Sequence record: ON528731
Source of the DNA: Shigella phage ESh21
DNA: 64,000 nt
Strand: one strand, 5' to 3'
Shown: one piece after another, positions 13,917 through 23,198 of the stretch
Layout of the letters: each line of letters begins with the position of its first letter
How positions within the stretch are numbered: the first letter of the stretch is position 1
Notes under the pieces: model-generated
The model's input: only the letters and a program-made list of their open reading frames with translations
Told to the model about the DNA's origin: nothing
Database searches by the model: none
Made by a program: the position numbers and the translations under genes

Positions 13917-14798
13917 ATGAAAACTATTATTAGTGTACTGTTACACTCACGTAAAAAAGGTGCTCACCAAGAAGAGTTCAACATTATCCAGTTTCCGTCT
14001 GGAGAAATTGGTGGTAACTTCTCAGAAGACCTAGTAGCCTATGCTGAACAGAATGCTTCCCAGATTGAGAATGTAATCCTCACTGTACAGGGTTACGACA
14101 AAGATACTCTGTTTGCTTTAGCTCTGGCGAAAGAAGCTATTGACAAACTAATTCCTCAGAAATCAACTATGAAGACTGCTGTATTTGGCTTCTTACCAAA
14201 TGCTCGTTATGACCGTCACATGTTTAAAGGTGATGCAGCAGCATTGAAAGTCTTTGCAAATCTGGTAAATGCTATGGAGTTTGATGCAGTATGTGCTTTA
14301 GATACTCACAGCAACGTAGCAGAGAACTTGTTTAAGTGCTTCCATAACCTGCCCCAGAAAGAAGCAGCAGTACACTTTGCAAGTGACCCACGTATTGATT
14401 TCTTAGTGGCTCCAGATGCAGGTGCAGCCAAGAAGACTGAAGAGGCTGCTAAAGAGGTTGATAAGCCATATATCACAATGGCTAAGATTCGTAATCTGAA
14501 AACTGGTGAAATCACTGGTATGCGAATCCTTGATGATGTAGACTTAACTGGTAAAGCTGTCATGATTCTCGATGATATCTGTGATGGTGGTCGTACCTTT
14601 GTAGAAGCTGCAAAACATCTTCGTGAAGCTGGTGCAAGCCGTGTAGAACTTTATGTAACTCATGGGATTTTCTCAAAAGGTGTTGAAAATCTTCTTGACA
14701 ATGGCATTGACCATATCTACACTACAAACTCGCTAGGGGATGCTGAAGACCGTGGTCTGAATCAGTTCTCACAAGTAACTGTAGCAAACATTGAGTAA
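13917..14798 (+). CDS. prs: ribose-phosphate pyrophosphokinase (PRPP synthetase)
   Basis: 293 aa; PRPP-binding loop VMILDDICDGGRT resembles the DD(I/L)xDTGGT motif. Confidence 0.8.
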   Translation: MKTIISVLLHSRKKGAHQEEFNIIQFPSGEIGGNFSEDLVAYAEQNASQIENVILTVQGYDKDTLFALALAKEAIDKLIPQKSTMKTAVFGFLPNARYDRHMFKGDAAALKVFANLVNAMEFDAVCALDTHSNVAENLFKCFHNLPQKEAAVHFASDPRIDFLVAPDAGAAKKTEEAAKEVDKPYITMAKIRNLKTGEITGMRILDDVDLTGKAVMILDDICDGGRTFVEAAKHLREAGASRVELYVTHGIFSKGVENLLDNGIDHIYTTNSLGDAEDRGLNQFSQVTVANIE

Positions 14799-14846: not shown

Positions 14847-16673
14847 ATGTCTAAATCAGTTTATGCAGTACCAGCAGGTCTTAATGCGGATGCTTACAAA
14901 GCTGGCCATATCTACCAGTACCCAAGTGCTACACAGTATCTGATGCTAAATCTTACACCTCGTGGTGATAAGTGGTTTAACACTCCACTTGATATTGACG
15001 GTGTAGTTGCTTTTGGTATTCAACGTTTCGTTAAAGATTACTTAGTAGACCACTGGAATGCTACCTTCTTTGAACGAGATAAGAAAGAAGTTGTTGACGA
15101 AATCTTAGAAATCATGAACGGTGTTCTCGGTGCAGATGCGATTGGTCGTGAGCATTGGGAAGAACTTCACGATTTAGGCTATCTGCCAGTCGAAGTCTAC
15201 TCTGTAGAAGAGGGTACAGTGGTTCCAATGCGTGTTCCAATGATTATCTTCAAGAATACTGTAGAGGGCTTCCATTGGGTAGCTGGATATCTGGAAGATG
15301 CTTTCTCTGCTGAAATTTGGAAAGCTTCTACGATTGCCACTATTGCATTACACTACAAACGCATCTGTAAGCAATGGGCTGATGTAACCTGTGATAATGA
15401 CTTCCATTTACCTTGGCAGTGTCATGATTTTGCAATGCGTGGTATGTCAGGCTTTACAGATGATGCTTTTAACGCTGTAGGTCACCTGACAAGCTTTAAA
15501 GGTACTGACAGCTTCCCTGCTGTCTACACTGCTAAACGTGCTTATGGTCAGTTTATGGAAGTAAGTGATATCGGCAACTCTGTACCAGCTACTGAACACT
15601 CTGTGATGTGCGCAAACATTTCATGGAATATGAAAGACTTGTCAGAGGAAGATATTCATTCACAGTACATCATGCAGTCTGATAGCTTGCTGGATGCAAA
15701 ACGTTGGCGTGGTGAGGTTAAAACCTTTGAGCATTTACTGGTAGACGTATATCCAACTGGTATTGCAAGTGTTGTTTCAGATACTTACAACTTCTGGCGT
15801 ACTGTTACAGAGATTCTCCCAGAACTCCGTGAAGTTATCCTGAAGCGTGAAGGTAAACTGGTAATACGTCCAGACTCTGGAGACCCCATTCACATTGTTG
15901 CTGGTTATCGTGCTGTTGAGTGGGAAAATGCCAAGAGTATGTTCTACAAACATATGAAAGAAATTGCACCGAACAATGATAAACTCCTGAATCTTATTCA
16001 GTATTGTGAGTTGCAGGATATGGGTTATGGGTTTGCTGCATGGCTTATCTCTGAAGGTTATGAGTTAGTTGTTGATAAAGAAGATTTTGAAACTGCTGAA
16101 ACAGTTAACTTGAAAGATTTTAATAAGACCGGAAATATTGTTGTTAAGCGTATGCTGACAGCAGAGATTGATGGGGCTATCCCAACTCTCTACAACATCT
16201 TTGGTGGTCGTGTGAACAGTAAAGGTTACAAAGTACTGGATGAGCACATCGGTTTAATCTATGGTGATTCTATCACCCTTGAGCGAGCTAATGAGATTCT
16301 TGGTCGTCTTGCTGACAAAGGTTTTGCAAGCTCTAACGTGGTCTTTGGTGTTGGTTCATACACTTACCAGTACCTGACTCGTGATACCTTTGCATTTGCT
16401 GTCAAGGCTACTCTTGCTCAGATGGACGGTGAAGAAATCATGCTGGCAAAAGACCCTAAAACTGACAGTGGTCTTAAGAAGTCTGCTTTTGGTGGTGTAG
16501 TTCCTATGTGTGACGGTGATAAACTGGAAGCTGTAGACGGCTTTGGCTTTGCAGAGTTTGAAGGTGTACTGGATAATCCAGAATGTGCTTTGAAGTTGGT
16601 GTTTAGCAACTCTCAACCATATGGTTATGTAAACCTTCGTGATGTTCGAAATAACATTGACAAACAACTCTAA
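14847..16673 (+). CDS. nadV: nicotinamide phosphoribosyltransferase (NAMPT/NadV)
   Basis: motif VIRPDSGDP characteristic of NAMPT/NAPRT type II PRTases; start 14847 after GAGAGAG preferred over 14805; C-terminal extension relative to typical NAMPT. Confidence 0.8.
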   Translation: MSKSVYAVPAGLNADAYKAGHIYQYPSATQYLMLNLTPRGDKWFNTPLDIDGVVAFGIQRFVKDYLVDHWNATFFERDKKEVVDEILEIMNGVLGADAIGREHWEELHDLGYLPVEVYSVEEGTVVPMRVPMIIFKNTVEGFHWVAGYLEDAFSAEIWKASTIATIALHYKRICKQWADVTCDNDFHLPWQCHDFAMRGMSGFTDDAFNAVGHLTSFKGTDSFPAVYTAKRAYGQFMEVSDIGNSVPATEHSVMCANISWNMKDLSEEDIHSQYIMQSDSLLDAKRWRGEVKTFEHLLVDVYPTGIASVVSDTYNFWRTVTEILPELREVILKREGKLVIRPDSGDPIHIVAGYRAVEWENAKSMFYKHMKEIAPNNDKLLNLIQYCELQDMGYGFAAWLISEGYELVVDKEDFETAETVNLKDFNKTGNIVVKRMLTAEIDGAIPTLYNIFGGRVNSKGYKVLDEHIGLIYGDSITLERANEILGRLADKGFASSNVVFGVGSYTYQYLTRDTFAFAVKATLAQMDGEEIMLAKDPKTDSGLKKSAFGGVVPMCDGDKLEAVDGFGFAEFEGVLDNPECALKLVFSNSQPYGYVNLRDVRNNIDKQL

Positions 16674-16726: not shown

Positions 16727-17062
16727 ATGAAAATTAAGCAGATGAATATCAACCTTATCTTAGAAGAACGTTGGGAAAACATCAAATGTACTGAAGATGG
16801 TTATAAGTTTGTTAACAAGATTATGCAGGAAGCTCAGACTCAACTTGCTTCTGAGATTCATACAACGATTACTTTGAAGGTTTACATCAAAGGTCTTCCA
16901 CAAAATCACCAAGAAGCCCTTGACCTGTTCTGTGAACACTTCTATAATCCGAACAAAAGAATCCTTGAAGATAATTTTGCAGTCTCTTCAAGCATCGTTC
17001 ATGACAGAAGCTTTATCCTGTTCAAAACTGTAGGAGAGAATGTATGCAAGGTTATTGGTTAG
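16727..17062 (+). CDS. hypothetical protein
   Basis: 111-aa ORF. Confidence 0.45.
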   Translation: MKIKQMNINLILEERWENIKCTEDGYKFVNKIMQEAQTQLASEIHTTITLKVYIKGLPQNHQEALDLFCEHFYNPNKRILEDNFAVSSSIVHDRSFILFKTVGENVCKVIG

Positions 17063-17223
17063 AGATTATCTTATCACTTGGTTGTATTGTTGCTATTGCA
17101 GTATTGCTTTGCAAGTACTTTGCAGAGACTGAACCATGTAATGAGTGTGAAGGTTCTGGAATAGCTGGTATTGGGCATTGTTGCCCTTACTGTAACGGAA
17201 CTGGAAAGAAATTTAAAAAGTAA
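17044..17223 (+). CDS. small membrane-anchored zinc-ribbon protein (59 aa)
   Basis: RBS TAGGAGAGA; N-terminal TM helix then CNECEGSG...CCPYCNGTG (CxxCxGxG-like); below ORF-track cutoff. Confidence 0.35.
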   Translation: MQGYWLEIILSLGCIVAIAVLLCKYFAETEPCNECEGSGIAGIGHCCPYCNGTGKKFKK

Positions 17224-17224
17224 C

Positions 17225-17254
17225 TTGACAGAGGTATCTATAAAAGAATATAGT
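17225..17254 (+). promoter_or_regulatory. sigma70-type promoter
   Basis: TTGACA - 18 nt - TATAGT upstream of rIIA. Confidence 0.5.
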
Positions 17255-17286
17255 TACCTCACCAAACAACAAAGAGGAATCCTGTT

Positions 17287-19656
17287 ATGCGTATGGTAAA
17301 TGACCACGCAGAGATTATCAAAAGTTCAGACACTTTAGAAACTTCTCAAGCTCAGATTAAGATGACACCTGAAATGTTTAGTCTTCTGAGTTCTGGTGTA
17401 TACACCTACAAAGAACGTGCTGTAATTCGTGAGTTATCCTGTAACGCAGTAGATGCTCACATTGATTCAGGTAATAGTGATAAACCTTTCTTGGTTCACT
17501 TACCAACTCGTTTTGAGCCGTACTTTGAAGTTCGAGACTTTGGTACTGGATTGACCCATGATAAAGTAATGAAACTTTACATGACCTACGGAGAGTCAAC
17601 AAAGAATGACTCAAATGACTACATCGGTGCTATGGGTATCGGTTCAAAGTCACCGTTTGCAATTGCTCAATCATTCACTGTATCAAGCTACGTTGATGGT
17701 GTTGTTAACAAGTACTCTGTATATCTTGAGAATGGTATTCCTCAAGTTACTAAACTGACTACTAACCCAACAACTGAACCAAATGGTTTAGCAGTTCGAG
17801 TAGCAGTCTCTGAGAGTCGCATTTCTAAGTTCCAAGAAGAAGCAAGTAATGTATTCTCATACTTTAAAGTTAAACCAGATTGCAACATTGAGTTCTTCGA
17901 TATTCTTGCAGCAATGACTTCAATCTCTCGTGAAGATGGTGTTTATGATGCAATGAAATACAAAGAGGGTTGGCGCTCAAACAATAACAGTGTTCACTTC
18001 AACGTTGTAATGGGGAATATTGCATACCCTGTTGAAATGGGTGAATTACTTGGTTCAGAATTTACAACGGTTCTGCCTCAGTTCTTCCGTAGTTCTGTAG
18101 ACCTTGTAAACATCTACATGCCGATTGGTTCAGTGGCTATTGCTGCATCTCGTGAAGCATTGCAGATGAACGACACTACCAAAAACAAAATTGTTGAAGC
18201 AGTTAAAAAGATTACTTCAACTATTGTTGAGGATGTTATTAAAGAGGTTGCAGACAAACCCACGTTGATTGACGCTGCACAAGCTTATGATGATATGAGG
18301 AAGAATGCTCGTGAAATATTCTATCACGTTAATGATAAGTTAGAGTGGCAAGGTCAGAACTTAGCAGACCTTGAACGTAAACTTTTGGGTATTCGCCGTG
18401 GTCAATTGGCTGAGACTGATGGTTCACCATCCTTCTTAAAAGATGAGAATGGTAACTTCCGTCTTGACAAAGATGGTAATCAGGTTCCTAATATCGGTAA
18501 CTTGTATGAACCTGTTGCATACTACAAATACAGCAGTCTTGAGAATCGTATTCGTGCAACTTCAGCCACGCATACACAAGACTCTGCAATGTTTAGTATC
18601 TTCGGTGCAATGAGTAAAGATAAGTTGAGCAATTACCTGTTCCTTATCAATGACCGTCGAAACAAGAATGGTACTGAAAAGACAACTGGTAAGAATCAGA
18701 TTATTCGTGGTGCTTGCCGTGACCGTGAACAAGAAGAGTCAAACTTCCGTCGCTACAATGGTATTGCATTCCTGTTTAACAGTCAGGAACAATTTGATGC
18801 GTTTGTAACGCTACACATGCTTGATAAGAGTCTGCTAAGTGTTCACAATATGTCATCTAAAGAGCACCATTACGAGAAACGTACAATTACTCGTGGAGTT
18901 GTTAAACTCTACAAAGCTTTTGTCTTCAATGATGACCAAGTAGGTTACTCAGAAGTTAAAGAGAACTTTGATGAGATTGAAGAACCACAACTTTACATCA
19001 AAGCACAAAGTGATGAAGTAATTGGTGGCTTGTTCTCATGTTCTCCAGAGACTGCTGCTAAACTCGTGACAGAGTTAACTGGGCAGTCTGTGTATGTCTT
19101 CCGTAAAGCAAACTGGAAGAAAGTACCGGAAGACTGGATTGAAGTAACTGAACAAGTCTTCAAAGATTATGTTGACAGTTCTCATTGGGTAGATTACCAT
19201 CGTCACATGATTTACCAGTGGGCTGCAAATAAGTGTGACCTGACTGATAAACATATTATTTCTCGTGAATTTACGTTTAATAATAAGAAGAAGTCTAAAG
19301 GTTATGTTTACTCCAAGGATATCAAATTTACGATGTTCTTAGAAGGTAACGAAGACGCTGTAGAAGCAATGTTTGGACGTTTGGCTTACTCTGCTGGGAC
19401 TATTGCTTATGAGGGTACTAGCAGTGTTCTGGAGTCCTTACGTAAAGCAATGCGGCCTAAGACTAAGATGAGACAGTCTCTTGACAAAGCTAAGAGCCGT
19501 CTTAAAAGGAAAATTGAGAAGTATTTTGAGCATCGTCGCACAGAAAACTTCTTGCTTTCTAACTTAGACTGGAATAAAGTATCACCTGTTGAGGTTGGTA
19601 AGTTCTTAGGGTTTGATGTTAAGCACATCCCAGAAGATACTAATTCTTGGTCTTAA
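17287..19656 (+). CDS. rIIA: rIIA protector from prophage-induced early lysis
   Basis: 789 aa; N-terminal VIRELSCNAVDAH and DFGTGL...IGAMGIGSKSPF match the T4 rIIA ATPase-like region (memory-based). Confidence 0.8.
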   Translation: MRMVNDHAEIIKSSDTLETSQAQIKMTPEMFSLLSSGVYTYKERAVIRELSCNAVDAHIDSGNSDKPFLVHLPTRFEPYFEVRDFGTGLTHDKVMKLYMTYGESTKNDSNDYIGAMGIGSKSPFAIAQSFTVSSYVDGVVNKYSVYLENGIPQVTKLTTNPTTEPNGLAVRVAVSESRISKFQEEASNVFSYFKVKPDCNIEFFDILAAMTSISREDGVYDAMKYKEGWRSNNNSVHFNVVMGNIAYPVEMGELLGSEFTTVLPQFFRSSVDLVNIYMPIGSVAIAASREALQMNDTTKNKIVEAVKKITSTIVEDVIKEVADKPTLIDAAQAYDDMRKNAREIFYHVNDKLEWQGQNLADLERKLLGIRRGQLAETDGSPSFLKDENGNFRLDKDGNQVPNIGNLYEPVAYYKYSSLENRIRATSATHTQDSAMFSIFGAMSKDKLSNYLFLINDRRNKNGTEKTTGKNQIIRGACRDREQEESNFRRYNGIAFLFNSQEQFDAFVTLHMLDKSLLSVHNMSSKEHHYEKRTITRGVVKLYKAFVFNDDQVGYSEVKENFDEIEEPQLYIKAQSDEVIGGLFSCSPETAAKLVTELTGQSVYVFRKANWKKVPEDWIEVTEQVFKDYVDSSHWVDYHRHMIYQWAANKCDLTDKHIISREFTFNNKKKSKGYVYSKDIKFTMFLEGNEDAVEAMFGRLAYSAGTIAYEGTSSVLESLRKAMRPKTKMRQSLDKAKSRLKRKIEKYFEHRRTENFLLSNLDWNKVSPVEVGKFLGFDVKHIPEDTNSWS

Positions 19657-19662
19657 AAGAGT

Positions 19663-19691
19663 TTGACAGGGGCTGAAAAGCCCCTTAGAAT
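19663..19691 (+). promoter_or_regulatory. sigma70-type promoter with GC hairpin in spacer
   Basis: TTGACA - 17 nt (GGGGCTGAAAAGCCCCT) - TAGAAT. Confidence 0.5.
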
Positions 19692-19726
19692 ACGAAACTG
19701 TTAATTAACTAAAGAGAGATATTAAG

Positions 19727-20836
19727 ATGACTACTAAAACTAAAGCACAAATCGACGCAGAAATCTATGCACTGGTAATGGAAGGTAAACTGACCAAGAC
19801 TGCCATTGCAAATCGTTACAAAACTTCAACTCGTTCTGTTGGTCGTGCTGTAGAACGTCACCAAGCAACTCTGGGTAAGGCTCCAGCTAAACCAGCCAAA
19901 ACTCTGAAGTCTATTGCAAAAGCTGCTAAGACTTCTAAGAAAGCAACTTCCAAGACTACTGTTGTAAAAGCTGTTAAGAAAGAAGAAGTCAAAGCCGAAC
20001 CAGTAAATGCTCTACATGATGCAATGCAAAGTAACAGCAAGATTGAGTACATGATTACTGGGGATTCTGTTATCATGACTTTCGGTGCAGAGTCTGAGAT
20101 TGTTGAATCAACTCATCCAAACTTTGCAGAAATCAAAGTAGCAGTCGTTTCAGGTGAGTACAAGAAAGCATTTGACCTTATGAATATCCGTAAGTCTATT
20201 GAGAACTTCACTCAGGGTGCTATCACTATCAAGGGTGATAACCTGTACTACGGTGCTGTTCAGATGCGTTCAACTCTGGTAGACCGTATCCTGACCATGA
20301 TGAAGAATGGTGATGAAGGATTTACCCATCTATTAGCGTTCTTCGAGAAGCTGATGGAAAACCCATCCAAAGATTCTGTAGAACAACTTTGGGGATTCGT
20401 ATCACATCTTGACGTTGAGATTGACGAAGAAGGTTACATTATTGGTTGGAAGAAAGTAACTAGCCGTGGTGGTAAACTGTTTGACTCTCGTACTTGCAAG
20501 GTTCCTAATGATTTGGGTAACATTGTAGAGATGCCACGTTGGATGGTTGATAATAACCGTAACGTAACTTGCTCTCAGGGTCTTCATGTTGGTGCTTGGG
20601 ATTATGTAACAAGCTTCTCTGGAGATACCATCCTGAAAGTTCGTGTACACCCACGAGATGTTGTATCAGTACCAACTGATTACCAAGATATGAAAATGCG
20701 AGCTTCCCGTTATGAAGTAGCAGCAATCGTGAATGGCCGTCGTGAAGTTGTTAAAGAGTGGGATGGTTCAGAAGCACTACACGTAGTTGTAGGTACTGCT
20801 GGTGAACTGATTTCTCAGCGTAAACGTGAAGTTTAA
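19727..20836 (+). CDS. rIIB: rIIB protein
   Basis: C-terminal VRVHPRDVVSVPTDYQDMKMRASRYEV matches the conserved rIIB C-terminus; Lys/Ala-rich linker near N-terminus. Confidence 0.75.
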   Translation: MTTKTKAQIDAEIYALVMEGKLTKTAIANRYKTSTRSVGRAVERHQATLGKAPAKPAKTLKSIAKAAKTSKKATSKTTVVKAVKKEEVKAEPVNALHDAMQSNSKIEYMITGDSVIMTFGAESEIVESTHPNFAEIKVAVVSGEYKKAFDLMNIRKSIENFTQGAITIKGDNLYYGAVQMRSTLVDRILTMMKNGDEGFTHLLAFFEKLMENPSKDSVEQLWGFVSHLDVEIDEEGYIIGWKKVTSRGGKLFDSRTCKVPNDLGNIVEMPRWMVDNNRNVTCSQGLHVGAWDYVTSFSGDTILKVRVHPRDVVSVPTDYQDMKMRASRYEVAAIVNGRREVVKEWDGSEALHVVVGTAGELISQRKREV

Positions 20837-20852
20837 TTAGTAAGAATCCTAA

Positions 20853-20880
20853 AGGGCTGCTTCGGCAGCCTTTTTTATTT
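20853..20880 (+). terminator. rho-independent terminator
   Basis: GGGCTGC-TTCG-GCAGCC + TTTTTTATTT. Confidence 0.7.
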
Positions 20881-20913: not shown

Positions 20914-21486
20914 ATGTTTAACAAAATAGGAGACCCAATGAAGAAATTCATTTTAGGTTTGTGCTTATTATTAACAGCACATGTTGCTACAGCGTCAGAT
21001 TGTCCAGAACTAACAATTAGCCAGAAAGTTAACATGTTAAAGGCTTACAATTATGGCGAGAAAGAGATGGGACAAGGTTGGGGAATCCCATTAGCAGCTA
21101 TAGCCTTACAAGAGTCACAATTAGGTGTCAAGGTTGTTAATAAAAAGACTCACGATTATGGAGTGTTCCAGAATCATTTGAAGACTGTTGTAAAGCGTAA
21201 CAAGATTTCACCTAACGTTGCAAAGAGAAAGCTTATCAGTGATTTCCATTACTCAGCTAAAGAGGCTCACAAGGAACTTCTTTTCTGGACAAATGTACAT
21301 GGTCACCCAAATGGAAAGTATTCTATGAAGCGTGTCTTAGCATCTTATAATGCTGGTTACAAATATAAGATTCCAAAGGCTAGACAATACTCTCAAGACG
21401 TGTACAATAACATGCAACTGCTTGCTCAATGTGAGTTTGCAACAAACATTAAAAAGGTAAAATATGAGCGAATCAAAACAATTTGA
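20914..21486 (+). CDS. secreted protein with lytic transglycosylase (SLT)-like motif
   Basis: N-terminal signal peptide MKKFILGLCLLLTAHVATA; ALQESQLG...DYGVFQN resembles the SLT catalytic E-S ... GLMQ region. Confidence 0.4.
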   Translation: MFNKIGDPMKKFILGLCLLLTAHVATASDCPELTISQKVNMLKAYNYGEKEMGQGWGIPLAAIALQESQLGVKVVNKKTHDYGVFQNHLKTVVKRNKISPNVAKRKLISDFHYSAKEAHKELLFWTNVHGHPNGKYSMKRVLASYNAGYKYKIPKARQYSQDVYNNMQLLAQCEFATNIKKVKYERIKTI

Positions 21487-22159
21487 TAAGGTGCTGTGTC
21501 ATGCTTATGATATCAAACCTTTGGATTTAGATATCAGTTCTGCAAGCTGGTCAGAAACTGTTAAAGCTGACTTTGCAGATACAGCAAGATATGTTGTGTG
21601 TCGTTTTGAAGATTTTCACTCAACGATGACAAAGATTCCTTGTCAAGATTTGCTAACTGGTAAGACTGTGTATGTAAATCGTAACAGCCTCATCTTAGTT
21701 GCAAAAGACTTAGAAGCAAAACGTAAAATGGTTCTGGCAGATATTGACGGAGTTCTTACAAGCTTTGACAAAAGTCTTAATGCAACCTTGTTAGATGATG
21801 GTACTTACTCACAGTACACAAACTTGGTAGACTCTCACAGGGCTAAACCAACTTATGTTTTTAACATCCTATGTGGAATCTCACAGAATGCTGATATAGG
21901 ATTCTTAACTGCTCGTGGTGAATCACAAAGAGTGGTTACACATCTCTTCCTGAATGAGAACACAGACAGTGACTTCCTACTATTTATGCGTGGATTCGGT
22001 GACAATGAGATTAGTGCAGAAAGTTTGAAAGTTCGTATGCTTCAGTCTTGCATTCTACCTTACTATGATGTAGTATGCTTTATAGAAGATACAGTAAAGA
22101 ACGTGGCAAAGGTCGAAAGAATCCTTCCACACATTAAAACAATGTTAGTTAAAAACTGA
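21464..22159 (+). CDS. hypothetical protein with HAD-like DxDG motif
   Basis: VLADIDGVLTSFD resembles HAD phosphatase motif I. Confidence 0.4.
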   Translation: MSESKQFDKVLCHAYDIKPLDLDISSASWSETVKADFADTARYVVCRFEDFHSTMTKIPCQDLLTGKTVYVNRNSLILVAKDLEAKRKMVLADIDGVLTSFDKSLNATLLDDGTYSQYTNLVDSHRAKPTYVFNILCGISQNADIGFLTARGESQRVVTHLFLNENTDSDFLLFMRGFGDNEISAESLKVRMLQSCILPYYDVVCFIEDTVKNVAKVERILPHIKTMLVKN

Positions 22160-22687: not shown

Positions 22688-23035
22688 ATGACATTTAAAG
22701 AATTTTGTCAAGCTGCTTTTGTAATCATGTTTCTGTTAGGTGTTGGTGCTTGGGGAGGTTATACTTACAAGACCAGCCAAGTTAACGAGAAAGAGTTGAC
22801 TAATCAGAGATTGGTTAGTGTTGCTAAGGATGCTTACCAAGAAGGTTTAGCAAACCTTAGCGCTAATTACAAAAACGATTTGAAAGATGTGCTTGCTAAA
22901 AACAAACACACAAAAGAGGTATTAACTTATGAAAAAACTAAGACAGAGTTTCTTAATATTTGTGCTACTGAGTCTTATGTCAGGGTGTTCAATGAACAAG
23001 GTGAACAGTACCTTCAAAAACTCCCAAGTAAGTGA
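22688..23035 (+). CDS. i-spanin-like protein (N-terminal TM, coiled-coil)
   Basis: 115 aa; TM helix FVIMFLLGVGAWGGY then charged helical region; 3' part overlapped out of frame by a lipoprotein ORF. Confidence 0.4.
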   Translation: MTFKEFCQAAFVIMFLLGVGAWGGYTYKTSQVNEKELTNQRLVSVAKDAYQEGLANLSANYKNDLKDVLAKNKHTKEVLTYEKTKTEFLNICATESYVRVFNEQGEQYLQKLPSK

Positions 23036-23198
23036 GAGTGACAAGTACACTCAGGAAGAAACTAGGTACACTGTCAAAGGTACTAAGGGTGAAGACCTTG
23101 CTAGTGCTATGGAGTTTTATCGTGATGGATTCTATGAATGTGCTATCAAGGCAAACAATTTGATTGATATGATTTTGTTAGGGAATAAGCAGCAATGA
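22929..23198 (+). CDS. o-spanin-like lipoprotein
   Basis: 89 aa; signal peptide with lipobox-like LSLMSGC; starts inside 22688..23035 in another frame (Rz/Rz1-like arrangement). Confidence 0.4.
   Translation: MKKLRQSFLIFVLLSLMSGCSMNKVNSTFKNSQVSESDKYTQEETRYTVKGTKGEDLASAMEFYRDGFYECAIKANNLIDMILLGNKQQ

Follow-up and report, generated by a model that had tools for sequence, protein, structure and literature searches.

The rIIA-rIIB operon of Shigella phage ESh21, an orthologue of the T4 rII pair with a probable role in counter-defence

The stretch of Shigella phage ESh21 DNA analysed here (64,000 nt, record ON528731; hereafter the window) carries two adjacent plus-strand genes, rIIA and rIIB. In the list of open reading frames, positions 17287-20836 extend exactly from the start codon of one frame to the stop codon of the next; rIIA is the upstream gene and ends at 19656, while rIIB begins at 19727, which leaves a gap of 70 nt between them. 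The following features were delineated along the locus:

17225..17254, plus strand: putative sigma-70-like promoter site upstream of rIIA, TTGACA-18-TATAGT, agreeing with the consensus at 11 of 12 positions
17273..17278, plus strand: Shine-Dalgarno-like AGAGGA, 8 nt 5' of the rIIA ATG, seen directly in the sequence
17287..19656, plus strand: rIIA, ATG start, 789 aa, 90 kDa, without a predicted transmembrane segment
17419..17775, plus strand: GHKL (Bergerat-fold) ATPase domain of RIIA, residues 45-163, predicted from Pfam HATPase_c_3 and motifs
19663..19691, plus strand: putative intergenic sigma-70-like promoter site for rIIB, TTGACA-17-TAGAAT, a sequence match
19669-19684, plus strand: perfect hairpin GGGGCT-GAAA-AGCCCC, which constitutes the spacer of the intergenic promoter site, 13 nt past the rIIA stop
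19727..20836, plus strand: rIIB, ATG start, 369 aa, 41 kDa
19742..19873, plus strand: N-terminal three-helix HTH module of RIIB, residues 6-49, from the structure model
19874..20008, plus strand: disordered Lys/Ala-rich basic linker of RIIB, residues ~50-94, pLDDT 35-52
20009..20833, plus strand: conserved alpha/beta core of RIIB, residues 95-369 (275 residues), no solved relative of the fold
20851..20880, plus strand: intrinsic terminator-like hairpin, GC-rich 10-bp stem with a T-run, 15 nt past the rIIB stop

Each gene is preceded by a promoter-like site (sigma-70-like) and a ribosome-binding site of its own, and a strong terminator-like hairpin lies 3' of rIIB. The TTGACA and TATAGT hexamers of the rIIA promoter-like site are found with the same letters in phages SUSP1 and Sf14. 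The promoter-plus-hairpin element in the gap is also conserved in phages SUSP1, Felix O1 and Sf14; the stem of the hairpin does not vary among them, the loop does, and the hairpin has a folding energy of -12.5 kcal/mol. We infer that this element may provide rIIB with its own promoter, act as a partial terminator or define an RNA 3' end. The pair is neighbored directly upstream by NAD-salvage genes, and downstream of rIIB by SLT-like, PNK and spanin genes, the last of these at 22688-23198, ~2 kb away.

The sequence-only reading had placed an rIIA/rIIB pair at 17287-20836, and this was borne out by PHROG profile searches, in which RIIA matched phrog_612 (E=8.9e-181, residues 1-767, profile positions 1-712 of 725) and RIIB matched phrog_609 (E=5.2e-86, residues 4-337). 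Alignment with the T4 proteins, which the same reading had proposed as a check, was performed by pairwise BLASTP and returned E=9e-42 for RIIA (177/682 identical, 26%; query 24-664, T4 22-626) and E=1e-57 for RIIB (118/323 identical, 37%; query 11-331, T4 13-303 of 312). Since both alignments are long and significant, the matches are not confined to short chance motifs. The N-terminal rIIA and C-terminal rIIB signatures that had suggested the assignment coincide with the best-conserved parts of the proteins (RIIA ~24-330, RIIB ~190-335), and homology to T4 reaches beyond these signatures to nearly the full length of both. Judged by sequence, T4 rIIA and rIIB have true orthologues in these two genes.

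Homologues of each protein were found in ~2,900 phage records, where they are overwhelmingly labelled rIIA or rIIB. Shigella phage ESh22 (Ounavirinae, Mooglevirus) shares 99.9% nucleotide identity with the window, and its record annotates both coding sequences: RIIA agrees with the ESh22 'rIIA lysis inhibitor' at 100% of its residues, and RIIB is 99.5% identical to the 'putative rII lysis inhibitor'. The family PF26926 is precomputed on 119 of the 120 listed RIIB homologues, some of them 95% identical to RIIB, and the Pfam-A copy that we searched, evidently older, gave no such match. The phage is a Felix-O1-like myovirus of the genus Mooglevirus, subfamily Ounavirinae, and the locus is its rIIA-rIIB operon; the pair is already known, being ordinary phage rIIA/rIIB counter-defence genes named in the public record.

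At the N-terminus of RIIA, Pfam HATPase_c_3 is matched with 26.2 bits, above the gathering cut-off of 25 (E=9e-6), while NCBIfam yields only sub-threshold partial matches to HSP90-family and sacsin ATP-binding models. The motifs typical of this fold can be recognised as an N-box (E49xxxN53xxD56), a G1 box (D84xGxG88) and a G2 box (G114xxGxG119), and all nine motif residues (E49/N53/D56, D84/G86/G88 and G114/G117/G119) are invariant in an alignment of this phage, SUSP1, Felix O1 and T4. The N-terminal domain is thereby predicted to be a GHKL-type module that binds and hydrolyses ATP. The highest 19-residue hydropathy averages are 1.29 for RIIA and 0.77 for RIIB, hence neither protein has a segment fit to serve as a signal or an anchor, and hydropathy analysis detected no transmembrane segment or signal sequence in either. 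Searches of both sequences against all PDB chains returned nothing at E<=1.

RIIB is built differently. Its HTH is modelled with confidence and the model resembles DNA-bound regulators and sigma region 4 (sigma-region-4/LuxR type); the segment can be aligned across this phage, T4 and a fusion protein of phage RB43. The linker that follows is strongly basic: residues 46-100 include 13 lysines and 12 alanines, residues 1-100 have a pI of 10.3, and both length and sequence of the linker differ among relatives. Within RIIB, conservation in the family alignment is lowest at the N-terminal region. For the core, a fold search with the structure model found no structural analogue among solved structures, and against BFVD the RIIB model matched only RIIB-type phage proteins (from N4-like, T4-like and further phages), the best of them at E=2.5e-42. 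NCBIfam gave no meaningful match to RIIB.

In phage RB43, both proteins are joined in the same order in one ORF of 1049 aa (RB43ORF001c). Its residues 33-311 correspond to the ATPase region of RIIA (E=1e-48, 37% identity) and residues 765-1038 to RIIB including the HTH (E=4e-49, 34% identity), and phrog_609 covers both halves. Together with the adjacency, shared orientation and 70-nt spacing of the two genes in this phage, we count this in favour of one functional unit. Because RB43 encodes the two as a single fusion, RIIA and RIIB probably act as one unit, as far as sequence comparison can tell. The organization in this phage differs from the single polypeptide of RB43 in that the two are separate genes with separate promoter-like and ribosome-binding sites. 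No further RIIA-RIIB fusion occurs among the 120 listed RIIB homologues, the longest of which is <=549 aa. A protein of Klebsiella phage AmPh_EK29 labelled 'rIIA-rIIB' was considered as a candidate fusion and rejected, as the label sits on a normal RIIB of 301 aa.

Compared with the T4 rII region (Benzer's locus), the pair retains the two proteins and their order, the PHROG families 612 and 609, the GHKL motifs and the HTH-linker-core layout of RIIB. Yet, RIIA is 64 residues longer than its T4 counterpart and only 26% identical to it, RIIB is longer by 57 residues, mainly in the Lys/Ala-rich linker, at 37% identity, and the 70-nt gap of this phage holds the conserved promoter-plus-hairpin element. 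The gene context also differs: topoisomerase and denB in T4, NAD-salvage, SLT-like, PNK and spanin genes here. The closest experimentally tested orthologues are gp081 and gp082 of phage SUSP1 (NC_028808), with amino-acid identities of 82% for RIIA and 87% for RIIB; they are collinear with this pair over the full length and the neighbouring genes are identical. In contrast, SUSP1 is a Suspvirus of E. coli, this phage a Mooglevirus of Shigella, and small indels distinguish the RIIB linkers. Felixounavirus relatives are in general more distant (RIIA ~64-65%, RIIB ~76-77% identical). The Felixounavirus Bas63 (JohannRWettstein) likewise belongs to Ounavirinae and carries an rII pair, g85/g84, but the defence countered there is QatABCD and not RexAB.

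The function of such pairs can be approached through these relatives, and for the SUSP1 orthologues the role named in the sequence-only reading, countering RexAB exclusion, has experimental backing. Knock-down of RIIA or RIIB in SUSP1 lowers the EOP only on E. coli expressing lambda RexAB (PMC11879866), and rII is dispensable on naive hosts and required in the presence of RexAB for SUSP1, T4, N4, MM02 and EdH4 (PMC11879866). In T4, transposon insertions in rII are depleted on RexAB hosts (HIDEN-SEQ). Deletion of g84 or g85 in Bas63 reduces the EOP 1e4-1e5 fold on QatABCD hosts, and complementation largely restores it (PMC11482910). As judged from these relatives, the rII module is not RexAB-specific, since it counters QatABCD in a Felixounavirus. 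By analogy, the pair studied here would be accessory, dispensable on naive hosts and needed against membrane-acting abortive-infection defences (RexAB and, in a Felixounavirus, QatABCD). That the two genes are rII orthologues which act in counter-defence against membrane-acting abortive infection is, in our opinion, very likely the right overall explanation.

A narrower version of this explanation deserves serious, if tentative, consideration: in natural Shigella and E. coli hosts the pair may mainly counter defences other than RexAB (QatABCD-like or others), and the RexAB phenotype would be a by-product, seen in the laboratory, of an activity of wider scope. It agrees with the need for both g84 and g85 of Bas63 for plating on QatABCD (PMC11482910), with the Bas37 RIIA and RIIB orthologues, which on uropathogenic isolates stand among the fitness genes of highest significance, and with the small reach of RexAB, which acts on only 2-3 of ~70 BASEL phages. 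The ~2,900 phage records with rII pairs also include hosts as far apart as Streptomyces and Vibrio, in which lambda Rex does not occur. As RexAB may be missing altogether from natural Shigella hosts, a different defence may be the relevant target for this phage. Such a reading refines rather than contradicts the best explanation; on the other side, sensitivity to RexAB upon rII knock-down was shown directly in SUSP1, the closest tested relative (PMC11879866), and the link of QatABCD to membrane depolarisation is a proposal only (PMC11482910).

The architecture of RIIB invites another reading, which we regard as improbable, namely that RIIB, by itself or together with RIIA, has DNA or RNA polymerase as its target and not the membrane, and that protection against Rex is indirect, e.g., through masking of the RexA-activating intermediates of replication or recombination. 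Its likeness to DNA-bound regulators and sigma region 4, the alignable HTH segment in this phage, T4 and the RB43 fusion, and the strongly basic linker would all suit such a role. Moreover, the GHKL ATPases include the DNA-manipulating proteins gyrase B, MutL and MORC. Against it stand the low conservation of the RIIB N-terminal region in the family and the classical T4 frameshift work, in which the start of the B cistron could be grossly altered and growth on K-12(lambda) was kept, so that the Rex phenotype probably does not depend on the HTH. Because the HTH and linker are conserved between T4, RB43 and Ounavirinae, yet by classical genetics dispensable on lambda lysogens, they might instead mark a second RII activity on DNA or RNA polymerase, RIIA and RIIB forming an ATP-driven nucleic-acid-associated machine whose effect on membrane defence is indirect; this we hold to be unlikely.

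Least credible of all, and in our view highly improbable, is that the pair serves as a lysis-inhibition device that delays holin-mediated lysis as T4 rI does: the PHROG category of both families is 'lysis', the RefSeq name is 'lysis inhibitor', the spanin genes are not far downstream and T4 r mutants were originally isolated as rapid-lysis plaque types, but in all the phages examined, knocking down or deleting the genes made no difference on defence-free hosts and a strong one when RexAB or QatABCD was present; this is a conditional counter-defence phenotype and not one of lysis timing. Lysis inhibition in T4 is reportedly exerted by RI on holin T, with rII unneeded on most hosts, according to the 1998 account of Paddison et al. 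in Genetics. The lack of a signal sequence or transmembrane segment in RIIA and RIIB likewise speaks against this role, Pfam, PHROG and NCBIfam searches placed neither of them in the RI or T families, and neither has the make-up of a secreted or membrane-anchored periplasmic antiholin that binds the holin, as in T4-type lysis inhibition. The 'lysis inhibitor' label used in databases goes back to history and does not denote a demonstrated activity.

For counter-defence against membrane-acting abortive infection, we propose the following working model. Host RNA polymerase would produce both proteins early in infection from the sigma-70-type promoters, and RIIA and RIIB would assemble into one complex, as the single polypeptide of RB43 suggests. 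This complex may be located peripherally at the inner membrane, because neither protein has a transmembrane segment. RIIA would supply the GHKL-type ATP-binding and hydrolysing module, and RIIB the HTH, the basic linker and the family-specific core. Together they might avert, or undo, the loss of membrane potential caused by the defence, and thus allow infection to be completed.

With regard to the window as a whole, the pair serves as a landmark that places it in Ounavirinae/Mooglevirus, as a phage essentially the same as ESh22. It also marks an early-gene counter-defence neighbourhood, a designation based on the NAD-salvage genes directly upstream. The locus adds nothing new on rII itself, as the genes are publicly annotated and RexAB has already been tried on a close orthologue. 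Three features could aid the design of experiments, though they do not settle a mechanism: the GHKL motifs, which are intact, the combination of HTH, linker and orphan fold in RIIB, and the natural fusion in RB43.

Some further observations concern RIIB. Its conserved HTH of DNA-binding type has no part in the membrane model, and its core is without a structural analogue that could serve as a guide to mechanism. In phage T6, RIIB itself is a trigger of CARD/gasdermin systems, and by analogy the RIIB of this phage may also be a liability that sets off systems of this type.

We found that the interval 17287-20836, which the sequence-only reading had called a rIIA/rIIB pair, coincides exactly with two genes, as position 17287 is the ATG of a 789-aa ORF and 20836 the end of the stop codon of a 369-aa ORF. 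They lie side by side on the same strand, 70 nt apart. The locus is organized as follows:

13917-14798, + strand, PRPP synthetase (ribose-phosphate pyrophosphokinase)-like gene (Pfam, PHROG)
14847-16673, + strand, NAMPT (nicotinamide phosphoribosyltransferase) gene (Pfam, PHROG)
17044-17223, + strand, 59-aa ORF immediately upstream of rIIA (phrog_3931)
17225-17254, + strand, sigma-70-like site upstream of rIIA (consensus match only)
17287-19656, + strand, rIIA, ORF of 789 aa with an ATG start
19663-19691, + strand, sigma-70-like site in the rIIA/rIIB gap, TTGACA-GGGGCTGAAAAGCCCC-TTAGAAT (consensus match only)
19727-20836, + strand, rIIB, ORF of 369 aa directly after the rIIA ORF
20851-20874, + strand, strong terminator-like hairpin just after rIIB (consensus match only)
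20938-21486, + strand, SLT-domain (lytic transglycosylase-like) protein, 3' of rIIB (just below the Pfam cut-off)
21464-22159, + strand, polynucleotide kinase family protein, 3' of rIIB (phrog_3970)
22688-23198, + strand, overlapping Rz-like i-spanin/o-spanin pair, 3' of rIIB

In the PHROG library, RIIA matches the RIIA family phrog_612 over residues 1-767 (E=8.9e-181) and RIIB the RIIB family phrog_609 (E=5.2e-86). When compared by BLASTP with the T4 proteins (record OZ209057.1), RIIA aligns over 682 columns with 26% identity (E=9e-42; query 24-664, T4 22-626 of 725) and RIIB over 323 columns with 37% identity (E=1e-57; query 11-331, T4 13-303 of 312). These alignments are long and collinear, so the proposed identity does not come down to short chance motifs. 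Homologues of each protein were detected by tblastn in approximately 2,900 phage records and, where annotated, are named rIIA or rIIB in almost every case. Several independent sequence comparisons concur on the rIIA/rIIB identity and show orthology to the T4 pair.

Over its 3,550 nt, the interval shares 99.9% identity with Shigella phage ESh22 (ON528732.1; Ounavirinae, Mooglevirus), in whose record the first CDS is already named 'rIIA lysis inhibitor' and the second 'putative rII lysis inhibitor'; this GenBank record is flagged UNVERIFIED and classified under Mooglevirus. At the rII locus, identity falls to about 82% for the remaining Mooglevirus and Suspvirus phages and to about 72-75% for Felixounavirus phages. 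Since no second close relative was found in the 50,697-record phage collection and every other Mooglevirus/Suspvirus record stands at about 82%, ESh22 looks like a fairly isolated lineage inside this group.

Residues 45-163 of RIIA match Pfam HATPase_c_3 (26.2 bits, just above the gathering score of 25), accompanied by partial matches to HSP90-family and sacsin ATP-binding models in NCBIfam. The protein has all three boxes of the Bergerat fold (E49xxxN53xxD56, D84xGxG88, G114xxGxG119), and their nine motif residues are all invariant in an alignment of the window phage, SUSP1, Felix O1 and T4, indicating that the ATPase motifs are intact. The rest of RIIA (about 600 residues) matches no Pfam family, though it aligns with T4 rIIA. 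No hydrophobic segment was found in the protein, and a sequence search returned no matching PDB chain.

The AlphaFold2 model of RIIB (mean pLDDT 86.9) consists of three parts:

residues 6-49, three-helix module
residues ~50-94, disordered Lys/Ala-rich linker
residues 95-369, confidently modelled alpha/beta core

Residues 1-100 have a pI of 10.3. No solved structural counterpart of the core was found, and all 32 significant matches to the model in BFVD are RIIB-type phage proteins. Among 87 aligned homologues, taken from one large-database search, the core residues G236, K242, R271, C282, G285, H287, P309 and V313 are invariant. The precomputed family PF26926 is assigned to 119 of the 120 RIIB homologues listed, a few of which also carry N-terminal HTH families.

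The N-terminal part of phrog_609 (1,055 positions) is matched by RIIA and its C-terminal part by RIIB, because a natural RIIA-RIIB fusion exists: Escherichia phage RB43 (NC_007023; 1-3150, - strand) encodes a single 1049-aa ORF, gene 'rIIA-rIIB'. In BLASTP, window RIIA matches the fusion at residues 33-311 (E=1e-48) and RIIB, HTH included, at residues 765-1038 (E=4e-49). This Rosetta-stone type of evidence supports joint action of both proteins, probably as a complex.

As for expression, the sigma-70-like site at 17225-17254 is conserved in SUSP1 and Sf14, and an AGAGGA ribosome-binding site lies between it and rIIA. The 17-nt spacer of the intergenic site forms a perfect, stable GC hairpin (GGGGCT-GAAA-AGCCCC, -12.5 kcal/mol). 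Relatives as distant as Felix O1 retain it, the stem unchanged and the loop differing. A similar hairpin-spacer site, TTGACAAGGGGCATAAAAGCCCC, was observed at 31186-31214 (+ strand, -9.6 kcal/mol). Such elements may serve as compact junctions between a terminator and a promoter, or as hairpins at RNA 3' ends. Host-type promoters would be compatible with early expression of the rII pair.

The closest relative studied by experiment is Escherichia phage SUSP1 (NC_028808), which shares 82% (RIIA) and 87% (RIIB) identity with the window proteins along their full length. The genes around its pair follow the order of the window (NAMPT, small ORFs, rIIA, rIIB, SLT-like gene, polynucleotide kinase, spanins). 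When RIIA or RIIB was knocked down by CRISPRi-ART in T4, MM02, EdH4, SUSP1 and N4, no effect was seen on Rex-less E. coli, and EOP dropped when the E. coli host expressed lambda RexAB (PMC11879866); HIDEN-SEQ agrees, as T4 rII shows conditional essentiality there too. In Bas63 (Felixounavirus), loss of either rII gene by deletion caused a 1e4-1e5 fold fall in EOP on a host with QatABCD, and complementation largely reversed it (PMC11482910). T6 RIIB also acts as the trigger for the CARD/gasdermin system from Lysobacter (PMC10312443). Taken through these orthologues, the anti-RexAB reading is supported with one refinement, namely that the range of the module is broader than 'anti-Rex'. The PhageMaP preprint credits Bas63 g84 and g85 with '>80% sequence homology' to T4 RIIA/B (PMC11482910), which probably denotes something else, e.g., coverage or another reference, given the 26 and 37% identity of the window Ounavirinae pair to T4.

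We propose that rIIA and rIIB would be expressed early and that their products would form a complex, associate peripherally with the membrane and protect membrane energetics, in an ATP-dependent manner, from abortive infection of the RexAB or Qat type. For T4 RIIA/RIIB, association with the membrane is established in the older literature; the present analysis shows orthology, the arrangement of domains, intact ATPase motifs and the fusion in a relative. It is plausible, and compatible with this model, that the primary target in natural hosts is other than Rex. The HTH of RIIB suggests a role directed at DNA or RNA polymerase, which is speculative. A true lysis-inhibition device is unlikely, as the phenotypes are conditional and export signals are absent. 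The sequence-only reading interpreted the rII pair correctly, and the finding is real, already in public annotation and well backed by experiments on close orthologues; we agree that the pair is useful as a landmark, and it offers little new in itself.

The PRPP synthetase-like and NAMPT genes, which precede rIIA by two to three genes, look like a pair with which the phage salvages or reconstitutes NAD+. Bas63 g79 and g80, located a few genes ahead of its rII pair, were reported to act against Sir2-HerA (PMC11482910), and counter-defence genes may be grouped in this region of the genome. The 59-aa ORF is hydrophobic near its N-terminus and contains the CxxCxGxG motif twice (CNECEGSG ... CPYCNGTG), similar to a zinc-finger repeat of the DnaJ type, and its position is conserved in SUSP1 (agp080), Sf14 (gp104) and ESh22. 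The SLT-domain protein carries a signal-like N-terminus and is annotated as 'putative lysin' in Sf14.
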